25,966 nt of DNA from positions 4,503,348-4,529,313 of the forward strand of contig CP070695.1 in assembly GCA_020353515.1 (NCBI GenBank), read 5' to 3'. This document shows positions 1-22,210 of this stretch, piece by piece (the stretch's first letter is position 1; each line of letters opens with the position of its first letter). Made by a program: the position numbers and the translations under genes. This DNA is from Candidatus Heimdallarchaeota archaeon. GTDB taxonomy: Archaea > Asgardarchaeota > Heimdallarchaeia > Hodarchaeales > Hodarchaeaceae. A model generated the notes under the pieces. It saw only the letters and a list, made by a program, of their open reading frames with translations, had not been told where the DNA came from and searched no databases.

Positions 1-177
1 CACGATGTAGAACAAGAATTGAGGATAATGCTAAACAACCTAATAAATTATAAAGAAAGAATTCTCGAGAAAAAAGAGGTTTTAATTCCTGATATAAGAT
101 GGGATGGTACAAGAAAAAAGGTAGGATTCTTAGAAAAAAAAGAGAGAGCTTTAGAGGAAGCGGCTGGCTCAAAATAA
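1..177 (+). CDS. sqdB: 3' fragment of a probable UDP-sulfoquinovose synthase (SqdB/Agl3-like SDR), 5'-truncated by the window edge
   Basis: Frame 1 is open from base 1 to TAA at 175-177: HDVEQELRIMLNNLINYKERILEKKEVLIPDIRWDGTRKKVGFLEKKERALEEAAGSK. The L..YK.RI......P...W tail resembles my recollection of SqdB/Agl3 C-termini. Only 58 codons are visible, so the family call is tentative. Confidence 0.55.
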   Translation, partial: HDVEQELRIMLNNLINYKERILEKKEVLIPDIRWDGTRKKVGFLEKKERALEEAAGSK

Positions 178-8630: not shown

Positions 8631-9953
8631 TCATACATAGAAATCTTGCAACATTTCAGTTGGCGCTTTGAGAATAAATATCGTAATCGCCACCCCATAC
8701 CATCCGATATTCTCTGCTAGATTCGAAAATACCATTCCAGACATAAAAAATGTCAGGGTTGAAAGAAACCCAGCTAAATATATACTCGACAAAACAGAGG
8801 AAGTTGCTTTTTTTGTCTTTTTCCATGAACTGATTATTAATGATATCGCTCCTATCAAGAAAAAAGCAGCAGCTGGAATGCCAGCCTCAGCTGCTATTGA
8901 TAGAATTGAATTGTGGAGTGTTAATTCATGTGATTTCCCCCAAATTTGTTCCGATACCTCTGTTATTTCGCCACTCTTATTGATAACATATTTTGCACTT
9001 CCTGGACCACAACCTAATATCGGCTTGTCTTGGATCGCTTCTAATGCTGACCTATACATTACAATCCTGACTCCTGTACCATGTTCTAGTAAATTGGACA
9101 TCTTTCGTTCAAACCGCCACGAAAGGCCTATGAAAAGAAATGGAATGATTATTAAAATTGCAACACAGATGAAAAAAGACTTTTTTGCAATCTTTTTCTG
9201 GAAGAATAGGAGAATGATTAATTCAATAAAGAATGTTAATGTCCCCATTACTGATACCGTCGATATAATGCCAATTGCATTAATGATAATGATTGGAGTT
9301 AAAAATTTAGAGTTCCGTAATCTCATCCAAACGAAAGCGAACGGAAACGTTGCGACAATGAATCGGGCAAAAACATTTGGTCTAAAAAAGATTGTAGCTT
9401 GAATGAATCCTTTAAGAGACAGGGGAGCGAAACTAAATGCTTTTCTAAATGCAGAAATATCCTTGGATATGATTACCAATAATATCGCCAAAGCTGCTAC
9501 GATAAAATTTGTATAGGTAATTATTCTGATCAGCATATTCAAGTGTTTCTTATTAATCGAAAGAGCAGCAACAACAACGAAAATCAGGATATATCGGAAT
9601 ATCCAACGTCCTCCCCAAGCTTTGATCCAACCAACATTGAAGTTCGTTATTAATACTGCTGCAAGAGAGATCGTGGTCAGTAATCCGGATAGAAAGAAGA
9701 GCCATATGGATCTGTGTCCAAAGAAGTAGAATTTAGGGCGATAACTGAGACTAAACAAGAATATAATGAATATCACGACCATAAGATACTCTAATGGAGA
9801 AATGTAAAGCTGTTTGGATAGCGGATTGAAGAAATATAACGGCAGAAATACTAGAGATACTTTTAAAATCCGCTCTCTGAAGCGATCAATCGGTTTCAAG
9901 CCGAGAGCTTTTCCATGGGTAGATGGAGGATAATCATTATTCTTTTTTATCAT
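8631..9953 (-). CDS. O-antigen ligase / Wzy_C-family integral membrane protein (ligase, polymerase or O-oligosaccharyltransferase)
   Basis: 440 aa, multi-TM. Contains F.RPNVFARF and a periplasmic-loop signature R..MY..AL..IQDKPILGCGPG ... LHNSILSIAAEAGI. Oriented opposite to the rest of the cluster. Confidence 0.85.
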   Translation of the reverse strand: MIKKNNDYPPSTHGKALGLKPIDRFRERILKVSLVFLPLYFFNPLSKQLYISPLEYLMVVIFIIFLFSLSYRPKFYFFGHRSIWLFFLSGLLTTISLAAVLITNFNVGWIKAWGGRWIFRYILIFVVVAALSINKKHLNMLIRIITYTNFIVAALAILLVIISKDISAFRKAFSFAPLSLKGFIQATIFFRPNVFARFIVATFPFAFVWMRLRNSKFLTPIIIINAIGIISTVSVMGTLTFFIELIILLFFQKKIAKKSFFICVAILIIIPFLFIGLSWRFERKMSNLLEHGTGVRIVMYRSALEAIQDKPILGCGPGSAKYVINKSGEITEVSEQIWGKSHELTLHNSILSIAAEAGIPAAAFFLIGAISLIISSWKKTKKATSSVLSSIYLAGFLSTLTFFMSGMVFSNLAENIGWYGVAITIFILKAPTEMLQDFYV

Positions 9954-10211: not shown

Positions 10212-11375
10212 TTGAATTCTAGGGCTAAGCTAAAAATACTCCATGAGAGGGACTTAGTCGACAAGGTCTGCGTCGTCATCGGAACCAGACCAGGTATTAT
10301 AATGTTTAGTCCCATTCTTAGGGCGCTTCACTGCAGCAAGATAAAATACTTTATTATCCATACTGGACAACATTATTCATACAACATGGATAAAAAGTTT
10401 TTTGAGGATCTTAATCTCCCAGAACCAGAGTATAAGCTCGAAAATGTAAAGGATTTTTATCTTCATGGTGAACAAACAGCCGGGATGCTGAAGGGAATTG
10501 AAAAAATACTGGTTAAAGAAAAGCCAAAGATTACATTAGTGGGGGGAGATGCAAACACGAATTTAGCAGGGGCCTTAGCCGCACGAAAACTTCACATACG
10601 GGTTGGGCATGTCGAAGCTGGAGAGAGAAGCGGAGATTGGAGGATGCCAGAGGAACATAACCGGATTATTATTGATCACATCTCAGAATATCTTTTTGCT
10701 ACGAACAAAAAAGCAAAGGAAAATTTAATCCTTGACAATATTAAAGGAAAAATTTTCATTACTGGAAATCCAATTGTGGATGCGGCATACCAAAATCTCA
10801 AGATCGCCCGTTCAAAATCACAAGTATTGGAGAAAATGAAGCTTAAATCTGATGAATATATTCTAATGACTCTGCATAGAGAGGAAAATGTAGACAACGT
10901 TGAAAATCTAAGGTGTGTATTTAAAGGATTAAGTTTGATCTGTAAGGATATTAGGAAGAAGATAATCTTTCTGGCTCATCCAAGGACTGTCAAACGTATC
11001 AATGAATTTGGCCTCAACAATATATTGCGCCCAATTCATTGTCTTCAAATAGAAGAACCTGTAGGCTATTTAGATTTTTTAAATTTGCTGGTTCATTCAT
11101 CCTTGGTAATGACTGATTCCGGAGGCGTCCAACAAGAAAGTTGCATTTTAAAAATTCCTTGTGTCACACTGAGGGACAATACTGAATGGATTGAAACATT
11201 AGAGATATCAGCGAATATTTTGGTCGGTGTATCTCCAAAAAAGATATTGGAGGGCACTACTATCATGCTCAGATCAGGTCGCATGTGGGATAATCCTTTT
11301 GGGGATGGATTTTCGGCGAAAAAAATTGTAAATATCATTGAAAATGATATAACGATGAAAGGGGACAAAACATGA
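10212..11375 (+). CDS. wecB: UDP-N-acetylglucosamine 2-epimerase (non-hydrolysing) family, WecB/WbpI-like
   Basis: GTRP, HTGQHY, GD.NT, HVEAG.RS, MPEEHNR, TLHREEN, TDSGGVQ.E and LRDNTEW motifs. TTG start with AAGAGG upstream. Confidence 0.9.
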   Translation: MNSRAKLKILHERDLVDKVCVVIGTRPGIIMFSPILRALHCSKIKYFIIHTGQHYSYNMDKKFFEDLNLPEPEYKLENVKDFYLHGEQTAGMLKGIEKILVKEKPKITLVGGDANTNLAGALAARKLHIRVGHVEAGERSGDWRMPEEHNRIIIDHISEYLFATNKKAKENLILDNIKGKIFITGNPIVDAAYQNLKIARSKSQVLEKMKLKSDEYILMTLHREENVDNVENLRCVFKGLSLICKDIRKKIIFLAHPRTVKRINEFGLNNILRPIHCLQIEEPVGYLDFLNLLVHSSLVMTDSGGVQQESCILKIPCVTLRDNTEWIETLEISANILVGVSPKKILEGTTIMLRSGRMWDNPFGDGFSAKKIVNIIENDITMKGDKT

Positions 11376-11965
11376 ATGCCGTTTTCGGAAAAGGCCGTAG
11401 ATTACAAGATCATATTATCATAGGGATGAAGTATAAGGAGGACTGCAGAAAAGCCCAGATCGGCAGTTATGCCGTTATTAGGTCTGGAACAATAATATAT
11501 GCTGATGTCGAAATCGGCGATTATTTCCAGACTGGGCACAATGTTATGATCAGGGAGATGACAAAGATAGGAAACAGAGTTGTCGTAGGAACAAACAGTG
11601 TCATCGATGGAAATGTTGAAATCGGAAATTTCGTTAAGATTGAGACTAATGTATATATCCCCACTCACATGAAAATTGGAAACCATGTGTTTATTGGTCC
11701 AGGGGCTGTATTCACTAATGACAAATATCCGCAGCGCTTGCGGGATGAGTATGAACCGAATGGCCCAATACTCGAGGACTCCGTAACAGTAGGTGCTAAT
11801 TCAGCGATTCTTCCTGGAATCCGTATTAAAGAAGGAGCAATAATTGGCGCAGGAAGCGTTGTTACAAAAGATGTTCCACCGTGGAACTTTGCAATCGGAA
11901 ATCCGGCAACGATTTCTCCTCTCCCGGAAAAGCTGCGGGAACCCAATCGCGCAAAAAGGTGGTAG
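11372..11965 (+). CDS. Hexapeptide-repeat N-acyltransferase (WbpD/WlbB-like)
   Basis: Left-handed beta-helix repeats, FIGPGAVFTNDKYP and IGAGSVVTKDVP...GNPA. ATGA overlap with the upstream gene. Confidence 0.88.
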   Translation: MNAVFGKGRRLQDHIIIGMKYKEDCRKAQIGSYAVIRSGTIIYADVEIGDYFQTGHNVMIREMTKIGNRVVVGTNSVIDGNVEIGNFVKIETNVYIPTHMKIGNHVFIGPGAVFTNDKYPQRLRDEYEPNGPILEDSVTVGANSAILPGIRIKEGAIIGAGSVVTKDVPPWNFAIGNPATISPLPEKLREPNRAKRW

Positions 11966-11971
11966 GAAAAA

Positions 11972-12958
11972 ATGATAAAGATAGGCGTAATCGGCTGTGG
12001 GAAAATAGCTGAAAAGCATCTAAATGCGTATAAGAAAATTGACGATATTGACGTATTTGTATCTGACATTGTTGAAAAAGGTAGAGTCGTTGCCAATAAA
12101 TACGGAGCCAAATGGTATGATGATCCGGAACGATTAATCCTTGAAGGAAAAGTCGATGCCATTGATATATGTGTACCTACGCCATCACATCATGATTTCA
12201 TAGTAAAGGCTCTCAAGAGCGGGAAACATGTATTCTGTGAGAAACCACTGGCTTCATCTATAGAAGAGGCTGAGCAGATTCAGGCGAAAGCTATGCAGAC
12301 AAATAAGCTTATAATGGTTGGATACCTTTACAGATTCCATCCCGCATTTGAATTTGCCAATGATATCATCAAAGAAAAAATCATCGGAGAACCTTATTAT
12401 GCGTTTTTCCGATTAGGAGGACGAGGATCTCATAAAGCTTGGAAACATTTAAAAAAGACTGGTGGGGGAGCCGCCAACGAAATGCTGGTCCATATGTTGG
12501 ATTTGGTTGTCTGGTATTTCGGCGAGATTACAAAGGTTGATAACCTTTACACTGATATCATCCTTAAAGAACGAATGATTGAAAATAAAATAGTAAAGCC
12601 CACAGCAGAAGATTTGACTCTATTGAAAATTGACACTACAAGTGATGTAAAAGTGCTTTGTCAATGCGATCTTATAACTCCTAGTTATATGAATTTTATT
12701 GAAATTCATGGGACCAACGGTTCCATGTACACTTCAATTTTGGATCATTTTCCTACCAATGTGTACTGCAAAGAGCCGATTGGTATCTACGATAGAGGAA
12801 ACAATTTTTTCAAGTTCTCTAAGGTTGACTTATTCGAAAAAGAATTGAGATATTTTATCAGTTGTATGAAAAATCGCTGTGTGAATGATGTAGACTCCTT
12901 AAGGGATTCGATTTCGGTAATGAAAGCAATAAACATTCTTTACAAGGAGAATGATTGA
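11972..12958 (+). CDS. Gfo/Idh/MocA NAD-dependent oxidoreductase (WbpB/GnnA-like sugar 3-dehydrogenase)
   Basis: IGVIGCGKIA, ICVPTPSH, HVFCEKPLA, VGYLYRFHP and H.LD motifs. It lies between an acetyltransferase and a DegT aminotransferase. Confidence 0.85.
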   Translation: MIKIGVIGCGKIAEKHLNAYKKIDDIDVFVSDIVEKGRVVANKYGAKWYDDPERLILEGKVDAIDICVPTPSHHDFIVKALKSGKHVFCEKPLASSIEEAEQIQAKAMQTNKLIMVGYLYRFHPAFEFANDIIKEKIIGEPYYAFFRLGGRGSHKAWKHLKKTGGGAANEMLVHMLDLVVWYFGEITKVDNLYTDIILKERMIENKIVKPTAEDLTLLKIDTTSDVKVLCQCDLITPSYMNFIEIHGTNGSMYTSILDHFPTNVYCKEPIGIYDRGNNFFKFSKVDLFEKELRYFISCMKNRCVNDVDSLRDSISVMKAINILYKEND

Positions 12959-14061
12959 TGAAAAGCCAAATTGCAATCACAAAAGTCAATCTGACCGAAA
13001 ATGAAATTCAGGCTGCTGTTGAAATTCTAAAGTCAGGTAATCTAAGACAGGGTAAAAAAACGGAGGAATTTGAATATTCATTTGCCGAGAAAATTGGAGC
13101 GAAATATGCTGTTGCTGTCAGTTCGGGAACGGCTGCTTTGCACATCGCATACCTTTCTGTTTTAGAGATAGGGGATGAAGTTCTCCTCCCTTCTTTCACA
13201 TTCATCGCGACAGCCAGCATGGTTCATTATTCGAATTGCAATCCTATATTTTGTGATGCTGATAGGGAAACATTCACAATCGATATTGAAGATGCTAAAA
13301 AAAGAATAACGGAAAAAACTAAAGCAATAGCTCCTGTTCACTTGTTTGGAAATGCCTGTGATGTGGAAAAAATCGAGGAATTGGCAAATAATCACAATCT
13401 GAGGATAATTTGGGATGCGGCTCAGGCTCACGGAACTCGTTACCGAGGAAAGGACGTTGGATGTCTGAATGATTTGGTATGTTACTCATTTTATCCGAGT
13501 AAGAATATGATTACGGGTGAAGGAGGAATGGTTACAACCAACAATCCCAAACTCAATGAAAAATTAAGGCTCCTCAGAAGTCATGGTCAGGCAAAGAAAT
13601 ATTTTCATACTGACTTCGGATTCAACTATCGAATGACCGATGTTGAGGCTTCGATCGGACTGGAGCAATTGAAAAGACTGGATCCAATGACAGAGATCCG
13701 TCGAAGAAACACAGAAATTTTAAATCAAGGTATCAATACAGTAGACGGCATCATTGCCCAAAAAACAACAATAGGTGCGGATCATTCTTATCATCAATAT
13801 TGTGTTTTAGTTGATCCTGATGAATATGGGTGTGACCGAGATCAATTAGCTTTGTATCTTAAAAACGAGAATATCTTAACAGGAGTCCACTACCCCCGCG
13901 GATTGCATGAGCAGCCAGTTTTTCAAGAAAGATTAGGGAAAATGGAACTGCCTGTTACAGAATATTTGACACGTCATATTCTTGCATTACCTATTCATCA
14001 TAATCTTTACCCCTCCGATATGGAAAGGATTGTTGACGCAATCAAAGAAAATCACAAATAA
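12958..14061 (+). CDS. DegT/DnrJ/EryC1/StrS PLP-dependent sugar aminotransferase (WbpE/GnnB-like)
   Basis: SSGTAALH, DAAQAHG, SFYPSKNMITGEGG (PLP Lys) and GFNYRMTD motifs. ATG 12958 overlaps the upstream TGA and follows AAGGAG; TTG 12955 is an alternative start. Confidence 0.92.
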   Translation: MKSQIAITKVNLTENEIQAAVEILKSGNLRQGKKTEEFEYSFAEKIGAKYAVAVSSGTAALHIAYLSVLEIGDEVLLPSFTFIATASMVHYSNCNPIFCDADRETFTIDIEDAKKRITEKTKAIAPVHLFGNACDVEKIEELANNHNLRIIWDAAQAHGTRYRGKDVGCLNDLVCYSFYPSKNMITGEGGMVTTNNPKLNEKLRLLRSHGQAKKYFHTDFGFNYRMTDVEASIGLEQLKRLDPMTEIRRRNTEILNQGINTVDGIIAQKTTIGADHSYHQYCVLVDPDEYGCDRDQLALYLKNENILTGVHYPRGLHEQPVFQERLGKMELPVTEYLTRHILALPIHHNLYPSDMERIVDAIKENHK

Positions 14062-14137
14062 CTATTTCAAGAACTGCTTTAATTAAAGCCACAAATCATT
14101 AGAACTGAAACAAATTGTGGATTAATTTTTATTAAAC

Positions 14138-15397
14138 ATGAAAATTTTACTTCTTTTCCCTCATTTTAATCCGCCAGAACTCTCAAGTAGCCTGCGATCG
14201 TGGACTATCGGAAGGTTTCTCGCTAATCGTAACAATGATGTCACGGTTTTTGCGCCAGGTGTGAACATGAGAACAGGAAAGCTGTTTCCTGAAATGAAAT
14301 ATCGAATATTTTCGAGTACAAACATCGCTCAACTTCGACTGATCAGGGTCAGGACACTTACTAATTTTCGTAAAAGCCCTTTAAGACGAGTATTTTTTGA
14401 ATTTATATATTCATTTTTAGCGTTCTTTAGAGCCTTGTTTGTCTTTAATATTGATATTGTAGTCGCATCTTATCCTCCCGCAATGATGCCGATATTTGGA
14501 ATTTTCCTTTCAAAGCTGAAACGAATTCCTGTAATTTTTGAGGTCAGAGATCTGTTCGCAGATTATCTAGCTGCCACAGGATATGTAAAGTCCAATCTTT
14601 TCATCAAAATTTCTCTCTTAATTGAAAAGTATGTCTCAAGAGAATGTACAAAGATTATTGCTGTGTCGCCTGGCATTAAACGAGAGTTAATTAAGAAAGG
14701 CATAAAAGACAATAAGATCTTCGTCGCTACAAATGGCTATGAGAATGAATTGTTTGAAAATGCTGATTACAGCTTAAATCCTCGAACTGAATATAAATGG
14801 AAAAACAGCTTTGTAGTTGTCTATGCCGGTGGACTAACACAATCCTATGATGTCTCCACGCTCTTGAGAGCCGCCAATCGAATGAAGAAAAATAAGAATA
14901 TTGTTATCGCTATCATTGGTGATGGTCATCGAAAAAGGGAATATATGGATTATTGCACTAAAAATAATATAAAGAATGTTCAATTTTTAGGTCCAAAACC
15001 AAGAAATTTGATGCCTGCCATTCTATCGAAAGCCGATGTTGGCGTTCATCTATTCCCTGATAATCCTATCTGGGAAATTGTTTTAGGGAATAAAACATTC
15101 GATTATTTAGGAAGTGGTATCCCAATGATCTATGCAGGGAGAGGAGATATATCCGATTTGCTGAATAAATCACACGCAGGAATAACAGTCAGTCCCGAAA
15201 ATTATGAAGAGTTAGCAGAAGCTATTCTTTGGGTGAAATCGAATCCTGAAAAGGCAAATGAAATGGGAAAGAATGGAAAAGAATTTGTAATGAAATATTA
15301 TTCCCGAAACAAAATTCTAGAAGAATATTACCAAATTTTAAAAGACAGTTTTCATTCTGAACCATCCATTCAGAAAACAAAATTTAAAAATGTTTAG
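14138..15397 (+). CDS. Glycosyltransferase family 4 (WbuB-like)
   Basis: FNPPE, FEVRDLF, AVSPG, NG, VVYAG and NKTFDYLGSGIP motifs. Confidence 0.9.
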   Translation: MKILLLFPHFNPPELSSSLRSWTIGRFLANRNNDVTVFAPGVNMRTGKLFPEMKYRIFSSTNIAQLRLIRVRTLTNFRKSPLRRVFFEFIYSFLAFFRALFVFNIDIVVASYPPAMMPIFGIFLSKLKRIPVIFEVRDLFADYLAATGYVKSNLFIKISLLIEKYVSRECTKIIAVSPGIKRELIKKGIKDNKIFVATNGYENELFENADYSLNPRTEYKWKNSFVVVYAGGLTQSYDVSTLLRAANRMKKNKNIVIAIIGDGHRKREYMDYCTKNNIKNVQFLGPKPRNLMPAILSKADVGVHLFPDNPIWEIVLGNKTFDYLGSGIPMIYAGRGDISDLLNKSHAGITVSPENYEELAEAILWVKSNPEKANEMGKNGKEFVMKYYSRNKILEEYYQILKDSFHSEPSIQKTKFKNV

Positions 15398-15399
15398 CT

Positions 15400-16431
15400 A
15401 TGTCTGAAGCCTTTATCTATTTATCCGCTTTCATAGTAAGTCTTTTCATTTCGCTCGGTATATCAACACCCGTATCTATTTGGATCGCGAGCAGAATCGG
15501 AGCGATAGATCATCCAGGTGATTTAACCATTCATGAATATCCGATACCGCGTCTGGGGGGATTAGGTATTTTTATCTCTTGGATAATCACAATAAGTATC
15601 TTCATGATAATTTTTAGTATATATGATCCTAGAATCCTGATAATTCTATTGGGAATTCTATTCATAATTATTATCGGTATCATTGATGACATTCGGGGGA
15701 TAAAGCAGACAAGAAAATTTATTATTTATTTCTTACTGTCACTCACAATATCATGGCTTATCATAGATATTAAATCTTGGTGGATCTTAGCTTCAGCATC
15801 GATCTTTATAGTTGGAATGATAAATGCTTATAACTTTATTGACGGAATGGATGGCTTAGCGAGCGGTTTAGCAATTATTAACTATTTTGCATTATTTATA
15901 TTATTCATTTTTGACGGATCCCTATTGCTAGCTTTTATTTCAATTAGCTATGCTGGTGCTTGTTCCGGATTCTTACCTTACAATTGGCACAGAGCGCGAA
16001 TTTTTTTGGGAGATGTGGGCTCACTGAGTATTGGGCTGTCAATTGCAGGATTATCAGTTATTTTTTTAGAAAACGGATCATGGGATTTCAATCGGGCCAT
16101 TGCAGTTTTATTTATTGCTGCCATTCCCATAGGAGATCTCATATTTACATTTGTGAGAAGAATCATTTGCAGAAAGACTATAAATCCCAGAAGACTTTTT
16201 TTGGGAGACCGCAGTCATTATTATGATCAAATGTATTCGATCTCAACTATGAATACTAAAAAAATAGTGATTATTAGCTATATTGTTTGTGTTGTTTTTG
16301 CCATGCTTGGTATAACTTTGTTTTTCTTGGAAGAAGTGCTGTCTGCATGTTTAGGAATCGCGGGGATTTTCCTTATAATCATGATTGGCAGATGTCTTAA
16401 GATAAAGATTCCAAAGGCTGAGAGAGTTTAA
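15400..16431 (+). CDS. wecA: Polyprenyl-phosphate HexNAc-1-phosphate transferase (WecA/TagO/MraY-like initiating enzyme)
   Basis: IH..PIPRLGGLGI, GIIDD, NAYNFIDGMDGLA, IFLGDVGS and DRSH motifs in a multi-TM protein. Confidence 0.85.
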   Translation: MSEAFIYLSAFIVSLFISLGISTPVSIWIASRIGAIDHPGDLTIHEYPIPRLGGLGIFISWIITISIFMIIFSIYDPRILIILLGILFIIIIGIIDDIRGIKQTRKFIIYFLLSLTISWLIIDIKSWWILASASIFIVGMINAYNFIDGMDGLASGLAIINYFALFILFIFDGSLLLAFISISYAGACSGFLPYNWHRARIFLGDVGSLSIGLSIAGLSVIFLENGSWDFNRAIAVLFIAAIPIGDLIFTFVRRIICRKTINPRRLFLGDRSHYYDQMYSISTMNTKKIVIISYIVCVVFAMLGITLFFLEEVLSACLGIAGIFLIIMIGRCLKIKIPKAERV

Positions 16432-16435
16432 TCTT

Positions 16436-17638
16436 ATGGATATAGATTCTCCTGCTATATTGGGAGGGGATCCCGTATTCGAGAATAAATTGGGAATTGT
16501 CCGACCTCAATTACCTAAGCTTTCATCCATTCAAGAACGCCTGAAGCTCGCTTTGATTTCAGGACAACTAACAAACCAGGGGAAGTACGTCGAGACACTA
16601 GAAAAAAAACTATCTGAATATTTTGGAGTAAGTCACGTCATTACAACATCTAATGCTACTCTGGGTTTAATTATTGTTTTAAAAGCGTTAGAAAGGGAAG
16701 GAGAAGTCATTCTTCCCAGTTTTACATTTGCAGCAACAGGTCATGCAGTTTCTTGGGCCGGGTTGAAACCAGTGTTTGCCGATATCCTTCCAGATACATA
16801 CACTTTAAATCCTGAATCCGTAGCTGAATTGATTAACAAAAATACAGTTGCAGCGATGGGGGTCCATATTTATGGACATCCATGCGAAATTGACGAGCTG
16901 TCCAAAATCGCTGTTCAAAATCGTTTAGAACTTATATTTGACTCTGCCCATGCCTTCGGGAGTTATTATAAAAACAAGATCATTGGGTCATTTGGTCGAG
17001 CTGAAGTCTTGAGTTTTCATGCGACAAAGATTTTTCCTGTGGGAGAGGGAGGCGCTATTTTAACAAATGACGGCGAACTAGCTACCCGCTTGAAATTACT
17101 TAGAGTTTTCGGCGATCCCGGCACAGAAAATACTCAATTGATAGGACTAAATGCGAAAATGCAAGAATTCAATGCATTAATTGGCCTTGAAAATCTAAAA
17201 GTAATCAACCGGCATATTGAAACGCGACGAAAAAGAGCCCAGTTGATGAAGTCCCTTCTTAATGAAACTCCGGGTCTTCAAACACAAAAGGAGCGTTCTT
17301 ATGTTGTCTCAAATTATCAAAATTTTCCTTTATGTATTGAAGAGAATCGATTTGGGTTGGATCGCGATCAACTCTGTTCTGCACTTCTGGCCGAAAATAT
17401 AGGCATCAGAAAATATTTCTATCCGCCACTGCATAAACATAAATCATACATTAATAATTCAGACGGAAATAGAAAGCAGCTTAATGTGACAAATGATGTC
17501 TCAAATCGAATCCTTTGCATCCCAATTTATTCAGATACGACGGAAGAAGAAGTTCATAAAATTTGTTTTGCTATAAAAAAAATATACCTTCATTCAAAAG
17601 CTATTCGTAAATTCATCATCAAAAATGACAAGAACTAA
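16436..17638 (+). CDS. DegT-family aminotransferase, VioA-like (NDP-4-keto-6-deoxyhexose 4-aminotransferase)
   Basis: LTNQG..V..LE, NATLGL, PSFTFAAT.HA, DSAHAFG, SFHATK (PLP Lys), GLNAKMQE and RKYFYP. This motif set is characteristic of the VioA subgroup. Confidence 0.85.
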   Translation: MDIDSPAILGGDPVFENKLGIVRPQLPKLSSIQERLKLALISGQLTNQGKYVETLEKKLSEYFGVSHVITTSNATLGLIIVLKALEREGEVILPSFTFAATGHAVSWAGLKPVFADILPDTYTLNPESVAELINKNTVAAMGVHIYGHPCEIDELSKIAVQNRLELIFDSAHAFGSYYKNKIIGSFGRAEVLSFHATKIFPVGEGGAILTNDGELATRLKLLRVFGDPGTENTQLIGLNAKMQEFNALIGLENLKVINRHIETRRKRAQLMKSLLNETPGLQTQKERSYVVSNYQNFPLCIEENRFGLDRDQLCSALLAENIGIRKYFYPPLHKHKSYINNSDGNRKQLNVTNDVSNRILCIPIYSDTTEEEVHKICFAIKKIYLHSKAIRKFIIKNDKN

Positions 17639-17655: not shown

Positions 17656-19566
17656 TTGGATATTAAAAATAAGAATCCCATAGGGCTTCGCACTCGCTAT
17701 CTAATGGCAATCGACCTTGTGTGTATAGTCATATCGATTGTATTGAGTTTTATAATACGTATTGAAGCACTTTACGATATCTGGCCCTACTTGAAGAAAT
17801 ATTGGACTCTCTTCATCCTAGCCCCACTCGTCCGTATCCCTGTTTATTATCTCTTTCATCTTTACAAACGGATTTGGCGGTATGCAAGCACTTCAGAATT
17901 AGCTTCCATCGCATTAAGTGGAGTAATCGGGTCCGCAATAATAGCTATCATAAATTTTGTATTGTTACCTATCTTAAATATTCCTCATTGTATATCAGGC
18001 TCGGTGGTCACATTAGAAGGAATCTTAAGCACGATTTTTCTAGGATGCTCTCGATTTCTTTTAAGATTGTTACAGGAAAGGATTCCACCAGATGAAGTGC
18101 CGGACTCATTATTTCTCACACAGAATCGGCGTAGAATTCTAATTATTGGCGCTGGAAATGCTGGTGCTATGATCTCACGTATGATGAAATCATACCCATC
18201 GGTTCAAGAATCTCGTATCATTGGATTCATAGACGATGATCCAAGCAAACTATCGATGCATATCCATGGTGTTCCTGTTTTGGGGACTCGCGACGCAATT
18301 CCTGCGCTTGTGAAGAAACATCATATAAATGAAGCTATAATAGCCATGCCCTCAGCAGATCCAGATTCCATTGATGATATCTATCATATCTGTTCGACGA
18401 TAAGTCTTCCTGTGCGCACACTACCCAGTATCTACGATCTTCTCGCTGGCTCTATGACCTTTGATCAACTTAGGCAACTTCGCACTATCGATGATATGGG
18501 ATATCAAATCTCAAAGCCTCATGAAAAAAGGCCAATAAAACTCACTTCTTTGATGATCACAGGAGGAGCAGGATTTATCGGATCAAACTTCGTCCACTTC
18601 ATGCTCCGAGAGCACCCCGATTACAGAATTGTTGTCTTTGATAAATTGACCTATGCTGGCAACCTCGATAATCTTCAGGGTTTGAAGGGAAAATACGGCG
18701 ATCGCTATGTTTTTGTTAAAGGTGATATTTGTGAATATTCGAAGGTCGCGGATGTAATTCAGCACTATAAAATCGATAGTATTGTTAACTTTGCTGCTGA
18801 ATCACACGTTGATCGCTCTTTAATGAATCCAGAAAGTTTTTTAAATACTAATATATATGGAACTTATTCATTACTGAGAGCAGCAAGACATTTCCGCGTT
18901 AAACGTTTTCATCAGGTATCGACTGATGAAGTTTACGGCCAAGTCACTCGAGGATCTTTCAGTGAAGAAGACCCTCTAGAGACAAGAAGCCCGTATTCGG
19001 CTACAAAGGCCGGTGCAGACCTCCTGGTTCATGCATACCGTACAAGTTTTGGGATACCTGTAACCATCACACGAGGAAGCAACAATATTGGTCCATATCA
19101 GTATCCTGAAAAAGTGGTTCCGTTATTTATTTTGAATGCATTAGAGGATCAAATCCTTCCGGTCTATGGAGATGGGCTTTATGTCCGTGACTATCAGTAT
19201 GTCATCGACCATTGTCGCGGCATTGATCTTGTGCTTCATACGGGGGAAAGCGGCGAAATATATAATTTAGGCGCAGGCAATGAAGTCGCAGCTATCGATC
19301 TTGCTAAAATGATATTGCACTATCTGAAAAAACCTGAATCCCTAATTCAATTAGTTGCTGATCGACCCGGTCAGGATCGTCGATACAGTTTAAATTGCAT
19401 GAAGATCAAGACGTTAGGATGGACACCAAAATGGACATTTGAAAAAGGGTTGGAAGATACAATCAACTGGTACTTGAATAACGAATGGTGGTGGCGCAAG
19501 TTAAAAAACGCAGAGTATTGGAAATTTTATGATACTCAATATAAAGAAAGATTGAGTAAGAAATAG
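17656..19566 (+). CDS. rfbB: Fusion protein: CapD/PglF-like N-terminal membrane and Rossmann (CoA_binding_3) region joined to a dTDP-glucose 4,6-dehydratase (RmlB) domain
   Basis: aa 1-~280: about four hydrophobic helices, LYKRIWRYAS, IIGAGNAG, GFIDDDPSK..IHGVPVLG, IIAMPSA. aa ~296-636: ITGGAGFIGSNF, DKLTYAGN, FAAESHVDRS, STDEVYG, PYSATKA, NNIGPYQYPEK, RPGQDRRY. TTG start after AAGGAG. Confidence 0.9.
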   Translation: MDIKNKNPIGLRTRYLMAIDLVCIVISIVLSFIIRIEALYDIWPYLKKYWTLFILAPLVRIPVYYLFHLYKRIWRYASTSELASIALSGVIGSAIIAIINFVLLPILNIPHCISGSVVTLEGILSTIFLGCSRFLLRLLQERIPPDEVPDSLFLTQNRRRILIIGAGNAGAMISRMMKSYPSVQESRIIGFIDDDPSKLSMHIHGVPVLGTRDAIPALVKKHHINEAIIAMPSADPDSIDDIYHICSTISLPVRTLPSIYDLLAGSMTFDQLRQLRTIDDMGYQISKPHEKRPIKLTSLMITGGAGFIGSNFVHFMLREHPDYRIVVFDKLTYAGNLDNLQGLKGKYGDRYVFVKGDICEYSKVADVIQHYKIDSIVNFAAESHVDRSLMNPESFLNTNIYGTYSLLRAARHFRVKRFHQVSTDEVYGQVTRGSFSEEDPLETRSPYSATKAGADLLVHAYRTSFGIPVTITRGSNNIGPYQYPEKVVPLFILNALEDQILPVYGDGLYVRDYQYVIDHCRGIDLVLHTGESGEIYNLGAGNEVAAIDLAKMILHYLKKPESLIQLVADRPGQDRRYSLNCMKIKTLGWTPKWTFEKGLEDTINWYLNNEWWWRKLKNAEYWKFYDTQYKERLSKK

Positions 19567-19748
19567 ACTGGTGAAAATCCTATCTGCCTGCAGTTCCATT
19601 CTTCACTTTTTTTAAAATCCAACCAATCTAGTTCCCCCCTTTCTTCCAAAAAGTAAAACATTCTCCATCCTATCAAAAAGATTCAAATTTTCTCAGGAAA
19701 AAAATAGGGTATTTGCATTTGATTTGAATGAAAGATCAGGAGCTTAAT

Positions 19749-20609
19749 ATGAATTGGCAACCCGTTATAATAATTGGCGCTCCGCGTTCAGGAACAAATA
19801 TATTGCGGGATTCGATCTCGGAATTTCCAGGAGTATCCACTTGGCCCTGTGACGAAATTAACTTTATATGGAAACATGGAAACATATCCTTTCCTCATGA
19901 TGAGTTGTCTCTAGAATTACTAACCTCTTCAATTCAACTTTTTATTCGAAAGCAATTCGAAAAAATTCATAATAAAACTGGTTGTAAAATTGTATTGGAA
20001 AAAACCTGTGCAAATACCCTACGCTTGGACTATGTTGATAAGATATTTCCAGATGCAAAGTACATCCATATCCTGAGGGATGGGCGTGATGCTGTTGAGT
20101 CAATTATCAGATGTTGGAAAAATCCTGTCAATCCTCCTAAATATTATTTGGATAAATTCTTAATTGTTCCTCCGCCGGATCGACTTAAAGTCTTATGGGT
20201 GATCTTGCGTAAAAGATTTTATTTCAAAAAAGTCCACTCCTGGAGGAGCTGGGGGCCTGAATTTTGCAATCTAAGAAACTTGCTGAATGAAAAAAGACCT
20301 TTATATGAAATTTGTGCATTTCAGTGGCTGGCGTGCGTCTCAAAAACCCTAGAATTTTTCGAAAAAATTGATCCATCAAGATATTTTATATTGAAATATG
20401 AAAATTTTGTGAAGAATCCAAAACCATATTTTTTTGAAATAGGAAAATTTCTTAATATCTCAGTGAAAGAAAATCAAGCGGAAAAAATAATTGAATCTAT
20501 TTCCCAAAAAAATATTAGCAAGTGGAAGCTCAGTCAGTACAGGCAAAAAGTCGAAAATATAATCCCTCTCATATCAAATATGTTGCACAGGCTAAATTAT
20601 GACATATAA
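19749..20609 (+). CDS. PAPS-dependent sulfotransferase (Sulfotransfer_3-like)
   Basis: 5'-PSB loop IIGAPRSGTN, LEKT and 3'-PB motif RDGRDAVES, plus YENFV. The start is probably ATG 19749 (AGGAG at 19738-19742) rather than 19728. Confidence 0.88.
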   Translation: MNWQPVIIIGAPRSGTNILRDSISEFPGVSTWPCDEINFIWKHGNISFPHDELSLELLTSSIQLFIRKQFEKIHNKTGCKIVLEKTCANTLRLDYVDKIFPDAKYIHILRDGRDAVESIIRCWKNPVNPPKYYLDKFLIVPPPDRLKVLWVILRKRFYFKKVHSWRSWGPEFCNLRNLLNEKRPLYEICAFQWLACVSKTLEFFEKIDPSRYFILKYENFVKNPKPYFFEIGKFLNISVKENQAEKIIESISQKNISKWKLSQYRQKVENIIPLISNMLHRLNYDI

Positions 20610-20950: not shown

Positions 20951-22210
20951 ATGAATGCAAATAATTACAAGTACGATATAATCCTAATTGTTTTATTAAT
21001 AATACTATCTCCGCTCTTTCTCTTTCCATTTAATGACTTTGTTTGGTTGGTTTTAATCATTCCGATCATTTGGTCTATACGCGCAATGAAATGCAATCAT
21101 ATTCATACGAACACAATTTTGGATTGGTCATTCTTAATTTTATGTATACAAGTCTTTATCTCTATAATTAATAATTTTAGCACCATATATTCAAGCCTCG
21201 CCAAGGCATATGGCGTATTGTTCGGCTTGATAACGTTTTATGCAGTTGTAAATCTAGCAAAAAGCGAAAAATTGCTTTCCCTATCAATATCAATTTTCAT
21301 TTTCTTGGGATCATTGTTTTCCATTTTGACTTTTCTTGGAACACATCTCATTCTAGAGAGATTTCTTCATGAGGGATTTCAACAATATAAATTTATTTAT
21401 CGTTTTCTTAGAGAAGCGACTCCAATTCTCGATTTTAAAATCAAAGGCGCTGAGATGGGATTTCATCCGAATGCTGTAGCTGGTACTCTGCTTTTTTTCT
21501 ATCCCCTTTTTTTATTTATGGTTGAATTTCATAAGGCCAAAAAACTCTTCATTCTAAAGAACAAAATATTTTTTTATGTGTTTTTCTGGTGCACTAATTT
21601 ATTGATATTTATTATTCTAATTTCCTCAACATCTCTTCTGGCATTATTTGGATTAATAATAAGTTTGATAATCATCATCTTAATTCAAAATAGGAAAAAG
21701 ACCATAAAATATGTATTGGTGGTTTCCATAATAATAGCTTTGTCCATTCTCATTCTTAACCCGAGTCCGTCACTAAAAAATGATTTTGAGAGAAAATGGC
21801 AAAAACGTTCCCCTTTACTATTGAAGGGAATCGAAATCATTAGAGAAAAGCCCTTTACTGGAGTGGGAATAAATCGTTTTAGATACTCTTCAGGCGTAGA
21901 ATATTATTCGGCCCATGCTCATAATCATCTTATTCATATAGCCGCAGAGCTTGGAATTCAAGCCCTTATTGCCTATTTGGCCATTATGATTGGTACGGGA
22001 TATATGTGTTTAAAGGTTTATTGGAATTCTGATATTGAGTGGATGCGCACAGCCATTTTAGGCTTAGGCGGAGGCCAACTCGCTCATTTCTTCTTTGGTT
22101 TAGGGGATTCCATCCCTCTTGGTGCAAAACCTGGGATAATATTCTGGATTTCCCTTGCGTTGATCACGGCGATATATAATTATCATGTCCAAATTGGCAG
22201 CTCCAGATAA
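20951..22210 (+). CDS. O-antigen ligase / Wzy_C-family membrane protein (second copy, different subtype)
   Basis: Multi-TM protein with GFHPNAVAG, R..L...G..IIREKPFTGVGINRF, HAHNHLIHIAAELGI and AHFFFGLGDSIPLGAKPG. Confidence 0.87.
   Translation: MNANNYKYDIILIVLLIILSPLFLFPFNDFVWLVLIIPIIWSIRAMKCNHIHTNTILDWSFLILCIQVFISIINNFSTIYSSLAKAYGVLFGLITFYAVVNLAKSEKLLSLSISIFIFLGSLFSILTFLGTHLILERFLHEGFQQYKFIYRFLREATPILDFKIKGAEMGFHPNAVAGTLLFFYPLFLFMVEFHKAKKLFILKNKIFFYVFFWCTNLLIFIILISSTSLLALFGLIISLIIIILIQNRKKTIKYVLVVSIIIALSILILNPSPSLKNDFERKWQKRSPLLLKGIEIIREKPFTGVGINRFRYSSGVEYYSAHAHNHLIHIAAELGIQALIAYLAIMIGTGYMCLKVYWNSDIEWMRTAILGLGGGQLAHFFFGLGDSIPLGAKPGIIFWISLALITAIYNYHVQIGSSR

Follow-up and report, generated by a model that had tools for sequence, protein, structure and literature searches.

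The stretch of archaeal DNA analysed here (the window; 25,966 nucleotides from a Candidatus Heimdallarchaeota genome) encodes a predicted membrane-anchored 4,6-dehydratase downstream of a sugar aminotransferase, a phosphoglycosyl transferase and further glycan genes (Table 1). The frame at 17656-19566 on the plus strand has no internal stop and forms a single 636-aa ORF, as the preliminary description had reported. A gene call for this locus, P0002, starts at Met17 and yields 620 aa; the TTG at 17656 was preferred as the start because the closest homologues (P0003-P0010) begin with M..ENRNPIGLR.RYL, which matches residues 1-16.

Domain searches divided the protein into two unlike parts. Pfam placed CoA_binding_3 (PF13727) at residues 72-256 (54.5 bits) and GDP_Man_Dehyd / Epimerase at residues 300-602 (265 / 202 bits), and Polysacc_synt_2 appeared only as a weak secondary match (73 bits). 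The NCBIfam model for dTDP-glucose 4,6-dehydratase, TIGR01181, matched residues 299-616 over model positions 2-321 with 444 bits, where the curated cut-off is 365.1. This is the combination that had been predicted beforehand: CoA_binding_3 with an RmlB model, not Polysacc_synt_2. The AlphaFold model (mean pLDDT 82) opens with four long helices at the N-terminus; an alpha/beta domain, a linker of low confidence and an SDR domain follow.

Table 1. Features of the dehydratase gene and its neighbourhood. Positions are those of the window.
Feature	Position	Strand	Details
Hexapeptide acetyltransferase, GFO oxidoreductase, DegT aminotransferase, GT1 glycosyltransferase	11372..15397	+	Syntenic with metagenome contig L162
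WecA/MraY-family polytopic phosphoglycosyl transferase	15400..16431	+	Glycos_transf_4
DesI-like sugar 4-aminotransferase	16436..17638	+	Pfam DegT; ends 17 nt upstream of the dehydratase
Membrane-anchored RmlB-type 4,6-dehydratase (predicted), whole gene	17656..19566	+	636 aa; TTG start; stop included
Four-helix transmembrane bundle (predicted)	17692..18081	+	Residues ~13-142; AlphaFold helices, hydrophobic windows
Rossmann-like domain PF13727 (CoA_binding_3), with GAGNAG	18124..18444	+	Residues ~157-263; Pfam, alignment A1, model
Swap junction and linker (LAGSMTFDQLRQLRTIDDM...), degenerate PglF-type 'IEDLLRR'	18445..18546	+	Residues 264-297; PglF-like alignment
RmlB-type SDR catalytic domain	18547..19515	+	Residues 298-620; TIGR01181, PDB-sequence matches, Foldseek
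T423-D424-E425	18922-18930	+	Catalytic motif, RmlB-type domain
Y447/K451	18994-19008	+	YxxxK motif, RmlB-type domain
Y481	19096-19098	+	In GPYQYPEK
Ala546	19291..19293	+	Asn in 94.5% of 73 soluble RmlBs; never Asn in the fused clade
Gln573 in DRPGQDRRY	19372..19374	+	His in 100% of 73 soluble RmlBs; Gln in 96% of fused proteins

Helices were predicted at residues 13-36, 42-66, 79-106 and 115-142, with pLDDT mostly >85. Segments rich in K/R lie at the N-terminus of the dehydratase and in its 67-80 loop, and hydropathy and charge distribution are compatible with a catalytic domain on the cytoplasmic side. The PF13727 domain is modelled as alternating strands and helices; in alignment A1 its residues G165, D193 and G210 were invariant and G170 nearly so. 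The N-terminus also matched WcaJ/EPS sugar transferases (NCBIfam TIGR03025/TIGR03023, model positions 2-249), and the four-helix bundle with PF13727 is common to it and to the WbaP-type large monotopic phosphoglycosyl transferases. Unlike WbaP and WcaJ, the dehydratase is without the Bac_transf catalytic domain: Pfam gave no match to PF02397 in the 636-aa protein. The N-terminus matches PglF-like proteins over its full length, WbaP-likes only at residues ~150-265.

The N-terminal ~280 residues had been assigned to the CapD/WbpM/PglF pattern with a degenerate linker, and both points were borne out by alignment. Identity to PglF-like proteins was 47-51% over residues 4-281, and homology extended through P.IYDLL.G....QLR, with RTIDDM of the dehydratase aligned to their IEDLL. 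Past the linker, of which residues 279-290 have pLDDT <50, the PglF-likes go on to TGAGGSIGSE and the dehydratase to TGGAGFIGSN. PglF of Campylobacter jejuni, WbpM of Pseudomonas aeruginosa and Cap5D/CapD are membrane-anchored UDP-GlcNAc 4,6-dehydratases. Like them, the protein combines an N-terminal four-helix bundle, PF13727 and linker with a C-terminal extended-SDR dehydratase domain that is predicted here to be cytoplasmic. The motifs differ: TGGAGFIG, TDE and YxxxK are found in place of the Polysacc_synt_2 motifs TGAGGSIG, TDK and MxxxK, and the catalytic domain is only 24% identical to that of the nearest PglF-likes.

The catalytic domain is of the RmlB type. TGGAGFIG spans residues 302-309, and AESHVDRS, STDE and YxxxK (Y447xxxK451), listed together with it in the preliminary description, were all found. 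T423, D424, E425, Y447, K451 and the NAD-motif residues were invariant in the 48 family members of alignment A1, and the TDE/YxxxK motif class agrees with Table 1 of a 2022 review of nucleotide-sugar dehydratases. The best matches among solved sequences were two dTDP-glucose 4,6-dehydratases, 6BI4 (358 bits) and 2HUN (352 bits), and RmlB structures superposed on the model with target-normalised TM-scores of 0.85-0.92 in Foldseek. Catalytic and NAD-binding residues and the thymine-stacking Tyr are common to the protein and to RmlB/RfbB/DesIV (6BI4, 2HUN, 1KEU, 1R66). That Tyr is Tyr481, equivalent to DesIV Tyr208, which stacks on thymine in dTDP-type enzymes (PMC9741107); no fewer than 90% of the fused proteins have it, and it is among the 85 of 96 soluble-RmlB-conserved positions that the protein keeps. 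Unlike known RmlBs, which are soluble and ~340 aa long, the protein carries 297 residues of membrane anchor and linker.

Trees were built for both halves. A related N-terminus was present in 153 of 401 Anaerolineae genomes, and the 30 such loci that were classified comprised 28 with PglF-type catalytic motifs, one fused gene and one frameshift-split gene. The closest N-terminal relatives (47-51% identity) lie among those with PglF-type motifs. Fused N-termini and their closest PglF-likes formed one clade in the N-terminal tree (SH-aLRT 97). In the C-domain tree the fused catalytic domains formed one clade (support 99) nested among soluble RmlBs of Chloroflexota, to which the domain analysed here is 60-64% identical; one of these soluble RmlBs sits one gene from a true rmlA_long (486 bits). 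As read from the sequences, the halves show separate ancestry, the anchor from PglF-like proteins and the catalytic domain from a Chloroflexota RmlB, and the term "domain-swapped" given earlier is apt. Both halves are consistent with a single origin of the fusion. In the first N-terminal tree four PglF-likes fell inside the fused clade, as a second swap would predict. A tree constrained to a single fused clade was not rejected by an AU test (p = 0.52) and scored slightly better than the unconstrained one, and the second-swap claim was therefore dropped.

Full-length fused homologues do exist in other genomes, as had been anticipated. About 55 clusters of 613-683 aa, 48-67% identical and with the identical Pfam combination, came from Chloroflexota and Myxococcota MAGs and from metagenomes. 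The fused gene is nonetheless rare, occurring in 1 of the 401 Anaerolineae genomes. A scan of genome contigs with the N-terminus alone gave no match, and a scan with alignment A1 gave only soluble RmlB loci among the matches listed. A scan of metagenome contigs with P0006 yielded just two loci with the full-length fusion, L161 and L162; their gene order agrees, and the matches are near-identical. In P0058 the fused dehydratase is additionally joined to a hexapeptide acyltransferase, a Rosetta stone arrangement. Two apparent soluble members of the fused clade were rejected: P0071 lacks a start codon, begins within the NAD motif and has Gln573, so that it is probably a fragment, and P0059, on a 1.7-kb contig and also with Gln573, is probably a fragment of a fused protein. 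P0066 is a real soluble sister in the C-domain tree and retains His and Asn at positions 573 and 546.

An assembly error or frameshift joining two genes might be suspected from the marker-based contamination of the host genome (7.4%). However, that genome is a single 4.94-Mb contig (with 11,231 N), and the two halves are equal in GC (40.3% for N, 40.5% for C), with GC3 like that of the neighbouring genes; the composition check gave no sign of recent transfer or contamination. Identity to family members declines in parallel for the N and C halves, and the junction motif QLRQ[LW]R, ~20 variable residues and TGGAGFIG recurs in the majority of 47 further full-length proteins, which come from independent assemblies. 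Because ~55 full-length homologues have the same junction motif, we regard an artefact as having a negligible chance of being the explanation. At the level of sequence, the fusion is confirmed as a real, rare and unstudied architecture. A literature search found no paper describing a membrane-anchored RmlB, in keeping with the earlier remark that the architecture was not one known to be characterised, and in the 2022 review the only dehydratase described with a membrane anchor is WbpM, placed there in one group with PglF. Pdeg was considered as prior art and ruled out, being soluble and PseB-like. In public annotation the fused proteins go simply by the name "dTDP-glucose 4,6-dehydratase", and the anchor stays hidden.

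The host genome is archaeal as judged by ribosomal protein S28e; a search of it for archaeal SSU rRNA gave no match. No close relative of the N-terminus was found in 400 genomes of the host phylum, 21 of the host genus included. The fused protein is the only one in the host genome above the TIGR01181 cut-off. No RmlA there passed the curated cut-offs (candidates scored 93.7 against 360.65, and 241.5 and 246.6 against 320.25 bits), rmlC gave no match and rmlD none above cut-off; an ST0452-type bifunctional nucleotidylyltransferase is present (447 bits). The gene most likely came to the archaeon from bacteria together with the neighbouring glycan genes, a direction taken from the distribution of the family. 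Six window genes have syntenic counterparts on a contig of 55% GC, and the genes at 11372-15397 are 37-59% identical in amino acids to their counterparts on L162.

Gene context was drawn from three independent contexts: the window, the genome G738 and the L161/L162 pair. In all three an orthologous DesI-like aminotransferase stands directly upstream of the fused gene. The best NCBIfam match of the window copy was TIGR04427, DesI (337 bits, below the 650 cut-off), and its best PDB match was DesI 2PO3 with 238 bits, against 85 bits for PglE (1O61). Gene order in the window is WecA-like transferase, DegT, fused gene. In G738 and L162 it is Bac_transf, PglD/VioB-type acetyltransferase, DegT, fused gene; these bacterial loci have a small PglC-type Bac_transf enzyme and an acetyltransferase of the NeuD/PglB/VioB or PglD type where the window has the WecA/MraY-type gene. 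Since the bacterial loci combine a PglD/VioB-type acetyltransferase with a PglC-type transferase, the set parallels the bacillosamine operon pglC-D-E-F, and the fused gene takes the operon place of PglF. Unlike RmlB, the fused protein has no rmlC/rmlD partner and is paired with an aminotransferase instead. G738 keeps a canonical RmlB of the soluble kind in addition to the fused paralogue; the retention of both suggests that fused and soluble enzymes have diverged in function.

These results support the earlier proposal of a membrane-tethered NDP-glucose 4,6-dehydratase. We are reasonably confident in the explanation as a whole, namely that the protein is an anchored NDP-glucose 4,6-dehydratase that arose by a catalytic-domain swap onto a PglF/WbpM-type anchor. 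In such a swap a UDP-GlcNAc dehydratase of the PglF/WbpM type would have exchanged its catalytic domain for a Chloroflexota RmlB domain but retained the four-helix anchor, the Rossmann-like PF13727 domain and the degenerate linker. The result would be an inner-membrane enzyme with its catalytic domain toward the cytoplasm, which would oxidise C4, eliminate water across C5-C6 and reduce C6, turning NDP-glucose into NDP-4-keto-6-deoxyglucose. The neighbouring aminotransferase would then form NDP-4-amino-4,6-dideoxyglucose, of the viosamine type. In the bacterial loci the acetyltransferase, which has a PglC-type transferase beside it, would N-acetylate this amino sugar. The predicted sugar would carry a 2-hydroxyl where the bacillosamine type has a 2-acetamido group. 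The enzyme thus described probably starts 4-amino-6-deoxy sugar synthesis for a surface glycan, substrate and product being predicted from homology and context. The anchor module would hold the first enzyme of the pathway at the membrane and, by analogy with WbaP, may also bring nucleotide feedback.

The VioA/VioB and DesI routes to dTDP-4-amino-4,6-dideoxyglucose proceed in the same order, an RmlB-type dehydratase followed by a DesI-like 4-aminotransferase, and the VioA/VioB route shares with the bacterial fused loci an N-acetyltransferase of the NeuD/PglB/VioB family. Unlike the fused loci, these routes use soluble RmlB; we know of no instance in which they form a pglC-D-E-F-like operon whose first enzyme is anchored in the membrane.

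The position of the fused gene, in the place of PglF beside aminotransferase, acetyltransferase and phosphoglycosyl transferase, would also suit an RmlB-type domain acting as a PglF analogue on UDP-GlcNAc and feeding a bacillosamine or QuiNAc-type pathway. The transferase in the window is WecA-like, and the WecA-like family handles UDP-HexNAc sugars. The 2022 review, moreover, lists retaining UDP-GlcNAc 4,6-dehydratases with a TDE/YxxxK triad. However, the review's example of such a retaining enzyme, Pdeg, is FlaA1/PseB-like and not RmlB-like, and the domain considered here passes the RmlB equivalog model, with 60-64% identity to soluble RmlBs and the 85 of 96 conserved positions noted above. 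The partner aminotransferase, with its far higher score to DesI than to PglE, also argues against a UDP-GlcNAc pathway. We consider this alternative improbable. In the preferred reading the expected substrate is NDP-glucose, not the UDP-GlcNAc of PglF, WbpM and CapD.

A different role was also considered, for example that of an EvdS6-like decarboxylase acting on an NDP-glucuronic acid, or that of an inert scaffold protein. EvdS6 (8SHH/8SK0) is a close relative in sequence and fold within the RmlB family (8SHH, 299 bits), and two conserved substrate-side residues are altered in the fused clade. Against this, the residues for 4,6-dehydration are invariant in the 48 members, the conserved neighbour is a 4-aminotransferase, which requires a 4-keto sugar, and the window showed no gene for a UDP-glucose 6-dehydrogenase. 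Such a role is very unlikely, and 4,6-dehydration of an NDP-glucose is the reading followed below.

The two altered residues bear on which nucleotide the sugar carries. Compared with 73 soluble RmlBs, the fused clade alone replaces His573 by Gln, in the motif that reads DRPGHDRRY in RmlB, and Asn546 by Ala or Thr, Ala in the window protein; 6BI4 and 2HUN keep both His and Asn. Mimivirus R141 (6VLO) has Asn at the 573 site and Val at the 546 site; of four homologues from giant viruses, which are of the UDP-preferring type, all share the Asn and three the Val. For R141 and the eukaryotic enzymes, UDP-glucose is an accepted or the preferred substrate (PMC9741107). Because the substitutions are confined to the fused clade and fall at sites that differ in the UDP-glucose-accepting R141, the carrier may not be dTDP. 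TvUGD, the RHM N-domain and R141 belong to the same family and have the chemistry predicted here, and they share with the fused clade an amide residue for the His of DRxGH and a small or hydrophobic 546 site. The fused clade differs from this eukaryote/giant-virus type in being membrane-anchored and only ~36-40% identical to it, and in keeping Tyr481, where those soluble enzymes have His, Gln or Asn.

The fused clade may accordingly comprise UDP-glucose 4,6-dehydratases, which would form UDP-4-keto-6-deoxyglucose. The end product would be UDP-4-amino- or UDP-4-acetamido-4,6-dideoxyglucose, whose sugar a phosphoglycosyl transferase would put directly on the lipid carrier as the first one. We hold this possibility tentatively; it amounts to the best explanation narrowed to UDP as the nucleotide. 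To our knowledge, Bac_transf and WecA-type transferases act only with UDP-sugars, so that a dTDP product fits poorly as an initiating sugar. The clade-specific substitutions, set against the His and Asn of the nearest soluble sister P0066, agree with UDP, as do the pglC-D-E-F layout with a Bac_transf enzyme in the bacterial loci, the separate canonical RmlB kept in G738 and the lack of an RmlA above cut-off in the archaeal genome. The homologous PF13727 domain of WbaP has in addition been reported to mediate inhibition by UMP (PMC10942596). Other evidence points toward dTDP: the retained Tyr481, a proposed mark of dTDP-type enzymes where UDP-preferring ones have His, Gln or Asn (PMC9741107), the margin by which the TIGR01181 cut-off is exceeded, the resemblance of the partner aminotransferase to DesI, a dTDP-sugar enzyme, and the true RmlA of G738, through which dTDP-glucose is available there. 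The pocket role of positions 546 and 573 is, moreover, one that we assume from RmlB and GalE structures. Taken together, the chances of dTDP-glucose as the substrate are about even; UDP-glucose, or both nucleotides, is a weaker candidate, and any other substrate is doubtful.

A more speculative version of the UDP reading goes further, and we offer it with corresponding reserve. The fused clade could be a UDP-glucose 4,6-dehydratase of prokaryotes, retuned through the changes at positions 573 (His to Gln) and 546 (Asn to Ala), that starts an undescribed UDP-4-amino-/4-acetamido-4,6-dideoxyglucose ("2-hydroxy-bacillosamine") pathway whose product is placed first on the lipid carrier. The PglF/WbaP four-helix and PF13727 unit would then be a portable nucleotide-sensing cassette for the membrane, moved to a third catalytic domain and into an Asgard-type archaeon.

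The fused protein is the sole RmlB-class enzyme in an archaeal genome that yet has no rhamnose pathway, and pathway reconstructions would be misled by it. The bacillosamine-like operon is predicted to yield 4-amino-4,6-dideoxyglucose, and positions 546 and 573 are candidate determinants of which nucleotide an RmlB enzyme chooses. PglF-like dehydratases and WbaP-type transferases share the four-helix and PF13727 module, which is without a settled function; a 2024 study remarked how puzzling it is that two unrelated enzymes carry it, and suggested nucleotide feedback (PMC10942596). The fused family is a natural experiment on this question, and a second dehydratase scaffold on which the idea can be tested. 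That the catalytic domain was swapped for one of another SDR family, with a different predicted sugar substrate, and yet module and linker stayed in place suggests that the module serves the pathway, through membrane location, partner contacts or regulation, rather than catalysis.

The fused gene proved to be a single open reading frame with a TTG start, as the preliminary description had held in calling it uninterrupted and 636 aa long, and every motif quoted there was found in the protein. The gene-caller version (P0002) has 620 aa and begins at Met17. We prefer the TTG start because the N-termini of the closest homologues (M..ENRNPIGLR.RYL) align with residues 1-16. The domain search matched both expected models, CoA_binding_3 and RmlB; Polysacc_synt_2 gave only a weak secondary Pfam match (73 bits). 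The NCBIfam dTDP-glucose 4,6-dehydratase model TIGR01181 scored 444 bits (curated cut-off 365.1), and the N-terminus matched the first 250 positions of the NCBIfam WcaJ/EPS sugar-transferase models. The AlphaFold model, computed from an alignment of 48 family members, had a mean pLDDT of 82. The N-terminus and the loop at residues 67-80 were K/R-rich, and hydropathy and charge fit a predicted four-pass bundle with both ends cytoplasmic, the arrangement that a 2022 review of nucleotide-sugar dehydratases gives for WbpM. Compared with RmlB structures, the SDR domain gave target-normalised TM-scores of 0.85-0.92; the solved structures best matching it by sequence were 6BI4 (358 bits) and 2HUN (352 bits). 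The fused protein is confirmed as an RmlB-type catalytic domain attached to a membrane module of the PglF type. Its earlier interpretation as a membrane-tethered NDP-glucose 4,6-dehydratase is supported.

Features of the fused protein and its neighbourhood in the window
Feature	Position	Strand	Source or detail
Wzy_C gene (O-antigen ligase/polymerase-like)	8631-9953	-	
wecB UDP-GlcNAc 2-epimerase, hexapeptide acetyltransferase, GFO/UDP-GlcNAc 3-dehydrogenase-like oxidoreductase, DegT	10212-14061	+	wecB 360 bits
Fused dehydratase gene	17656-19566	+	636 codons
Sulfotransferase gene	19728-20609	+	directly downstream of dehydratase
Wzy_C gene (O-antigen ligase/polymerase-like)	20951-22210	+	
Four long helices	residues 13-36, 42-66, 79-106, 115-142		AlphaFold model
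CoA_binding_3 (PF13727)	residues 72-256		Pfam
Alternating strand/helix domain with GAGNAG	residues 159-263		AlphaFold model
Low-confidence linker	residues 279-290		AlphaFold model
Complete extended-SDR domain	residues 298-617		AlphaFold model
GDP_Man_Dehyd and Epimerase	residues 300-602		Pfam

Full-length homologues had been predicted to occur in other genomes, and a protein search recovered approximately 55 clusters (613-683 aa) that share the Pfam domain set of the fused protein and are 48-67% identical to it. JGI, ENA, Logan and NCBI assemblies all contributed; those with a named source belong to Anaerolineales, Caldilineales, Anaerolineae and Myxococcales MAGs, and their proteins are automatically annotated as dTDP-glucose 4,6-dehydratase throughout. 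Most of the 48 aligned members share the junction G[TS]L[TS].[DE]QLRQ[LW]R, followed by about 20 variable residues and TGGAGFIG. Identity to the window protein drops in parallel in the N-terminal (59 to 26%) and C-terminal (77 to 61%) halves. The host genome is one contig of 4.94 Mb; GC content is equal in both halves of the gene, and GC3 resembles that of neighbouring genes. The shared junction, parallel identities, single contig and even GC therefore make an artefact very unlikely.

Related architectures were also seen. A 766-aa family member from an ENA metagenome (P0058) combines a partial PF13727, an RmlB-type domain (177-482) and a C-terminal hexapeptide acyltransferase (708-741), a triple fusion that links the anchored dehydratase to an N-acylation step. 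A 544-aa NCBI protein (P0057) joins membrane helices to an RmlB domain from residue 192; with no PF13727 match by Pfam, it seems to be missing the Rossmann-like domain. The RmlB homologues P0067, P0074, P0092, P0101 and P0118 (720-860 aa) carry intein/LAGLIDADG Pfam domains (PF14890, PF14528) and appear to be RmlB genes containing inteins.

The first 295 residues of the fused protein were searched against 401 Anaerolineae genomes. Relatives matching over residues ~10-280, in frames of 620-700 aa, were present in 153 of them. PglF/CapD-type motifs (TGxGGSIG) were found in 28 of 30 classified loci, which showed ~24% identity to the fused C-domain where any match was found; the remaining two were one fused form and one locus split by a frameshift. 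The closest PglF-type N-termini came from genomes G799 (51% identity) and G703, G682 and G724 (47%). A PglF-like gene on L130 (G434:C302) has the N-terminus most similar to that of the window protein (54%) and is broken across two frames, either through a frameshift or because of a sequencing error. Homology between fused proteins and PglF-likes extends through P.IYDLL.G....QLR, with RTIDDM of the window protein aligned on IEDLL; beyond linkers of similar length, the Rossmann motifs diverge. The linker, degenerate as first described, is thus what remains of the PglF linker, and the catalytic domain's first strand marks where the exchange begins.

Fused C-domains formed a single clade (SH-aLRT 99) nested among soluble Chloroflexota RmlBs in a quick unrooted tree. 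In one case a single gene separates such a soluble RmlB from a true rmlA_long (486 bits). At L042:7376-11068 (Anaerolineae MAG JARYMK010000047.1), rmlA_long, a B12-binding radical SAM gene and soluble rmlB are consecutive. The N-terminal tree, also quick and unrooted, placed the four closest PglF-likes together with the fused proteins in one clade (support 97), and monophyly of all fused N-termini was not rejected by an AU test (p = 0.52). Given the single C-domain clade and the AU result, both halves are consistent with one capture event; we make no claim of repeated swapping.

The host genome is archaeal. It contains ribosomal protein S28e, whose model matched only the archaeal genomes among the controls. 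No archaeal SSU rRNA match was found in its single 4.94-Mb contig, a sequence with 11,231 N, and the rRNA region is probably withheld and not truly absent. The fused gene is the sole TIGR01181 match above cut-off in this genome and its sole PF13727 domain. No close N-terminal relative was found in 400 genomes of the host phylum, including 21 of its genus; the best matches were three PglF-like frames at ~30% identity, all in one genome. A whole-protein search of the 401 Anaerolineae genomes detected the fused form in G738 only, a Caldilineales MAG whose fused protein is identical to P0033, another protein, over the N-terminal region. The family thus has a rare, patchy distribution and is diverse in bacteria. 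Six window genes (hexapeptide acetyltransferase, GFO oxidoreductase, DegT, GT1, DegT and the fused gene) are syntenic with metagenome contig L162 (55% GC) at 37-59% identity. On distribution, and with the family tree unrooted, the simplest reading is that the gene block moved from bacteria into the archaeon. Composition shows that the fused gene is fully adapted to its archaeal host.

The window gene order is GT1, WecA-like polytopic phosphoglycosyl transferase, DegT aminotransferase, fused dehydratase, sulfotransferase and Wzy_C protein, with a 17-nt gap between DegT and the fused gene. This archaeal glycan locus has two Wzy_C genes, of which the one at 8631-9953 lies on the opposite strand. 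G738 has Bac_transf, a NeuD/PglB/VioB acetyltransferase (204 bits, above the model cut-off), DegT and the fused gene; L162 has Bac_transf (202 aa), a PglD-type acetyltransferase, DegT and the fused gene. Both copy the pglC-pglD-pglE-pglF layout. Unlike these loci, the window has no PglD-type gene adjacent to the fused gene, and the 4-amino sugar may therefore be modified otherwise in the archaeon. Together the genes at 10212-14061 constitute a WbpI/D/B/E-like set, predicted to serve a 2,3-diacetamido sugar; three of them are syntenic with L162, where the epimerase matched only as an 80-residue Epimerase_2-like stretch.

In the window as in G738, the adjoining aminotransferase most closely resembles the dTDP-4-keto-6-deoxyglucose 4-aminotransferase DesI. 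TIGR04427 scored 337 and 351 bits, respectively (equivalog cut-off 650), with PseC and LegC models well under these scores at ~200 bits. Against solved structures, 2PO3 (DesI) scored 238 bits and PglE 85 bits. The most economical pathway would convert NDP-glucose to NDP-4-keto-6-deoxyglucose and then to NDP-4-amino-4,6-dideoxyglucose, which in the bacterial loci would be N-acetylated. This would yield an analogue of bacillosamine bearing a 2-hydroxyl group.

We give dTDP about an even chance of being the nucleotide carrier. The fused protein passes the RmlB equivalog model and retains 85 of 96 positions conserved among 73 soluble RmlBs, its partner aminotransferase is DesI-like, and G738 has a true RmlA. 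Also kept is Tyr481, which is proposed to stack on thymine in enzymes of the dTDP type; UDP-preferring enzymes have His, Gln or Asn instead (PMC9741107). Use of UDP, or of both carriers, is possible if short of probable, and two sites point to it. The His of DRPGHDRRY is invariant (100%) in soluble enzymes and Gln in 96% of fused proteins; Asn546 is Asn in 94.5% of soluble enzymes and never in fused ones. We take both sites to line the RmlB nucleotide pocket, the His presumably corresponding to Asp295, which binds the ribose in GalE. Both changes are confined to the fused clade, and its nearest true soluble sister (P0066) keeps His and Asn. Mimivirus R141 (6VLO), a UDP-glucose-accepting 4,6-dehydratase, has Asn and Val at these sites, as do UDP-type giant-virus homologues (Asn in 4/4, Val in 3/4). 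Also favouring UDP, no RmlA scored above cut-off in the archaeal genome, G738 retains a canonical soluble RmlB in addition to its fused protein, and the transferase families beside the fused gene are, to our knowledge, associated with UDP-sugars only. An ST0452-type bifunctional nucleotidylyltransferase is present in the archaeon. Another carrier or substrate is unlikely.

The 2022 review describes a membrane anchor for WbpM only, groups WbpM with PglF as the TDK/MxxxK class, and mentions no anchor for the TDE/YxxxK class. The retaining UDP-GlcNAc dehydratase that it gives as its example, Pdeg, is PseB-like, unlike the RmlB-type fused protein, and was expressed full-length with a tag, a membrane not being mentioned. 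A study from 2024 reported that UMP inhibits WbaP and that the four-helix plus PF13727 module is common to large phosphoglycosyl transferases and PglF-like dehydratases, and left its role in the latter unexplained (PMC10942596). Nothing further on anchored RmlB, or on PF13727 with dehydratases, was found in the open-access literature.

The fused family is rare, recurrent and uncharacterised, and occurs here in an archaeon. Its chemistry is probably ordinary. The anchored-RmlB architecture is relevant to what the anchor module does, a function so far unexplained, offers two candidate specificity residues in the His and Asn546 sites, and predicts a bacillosamine-like pathway that would lead to a different sugar.
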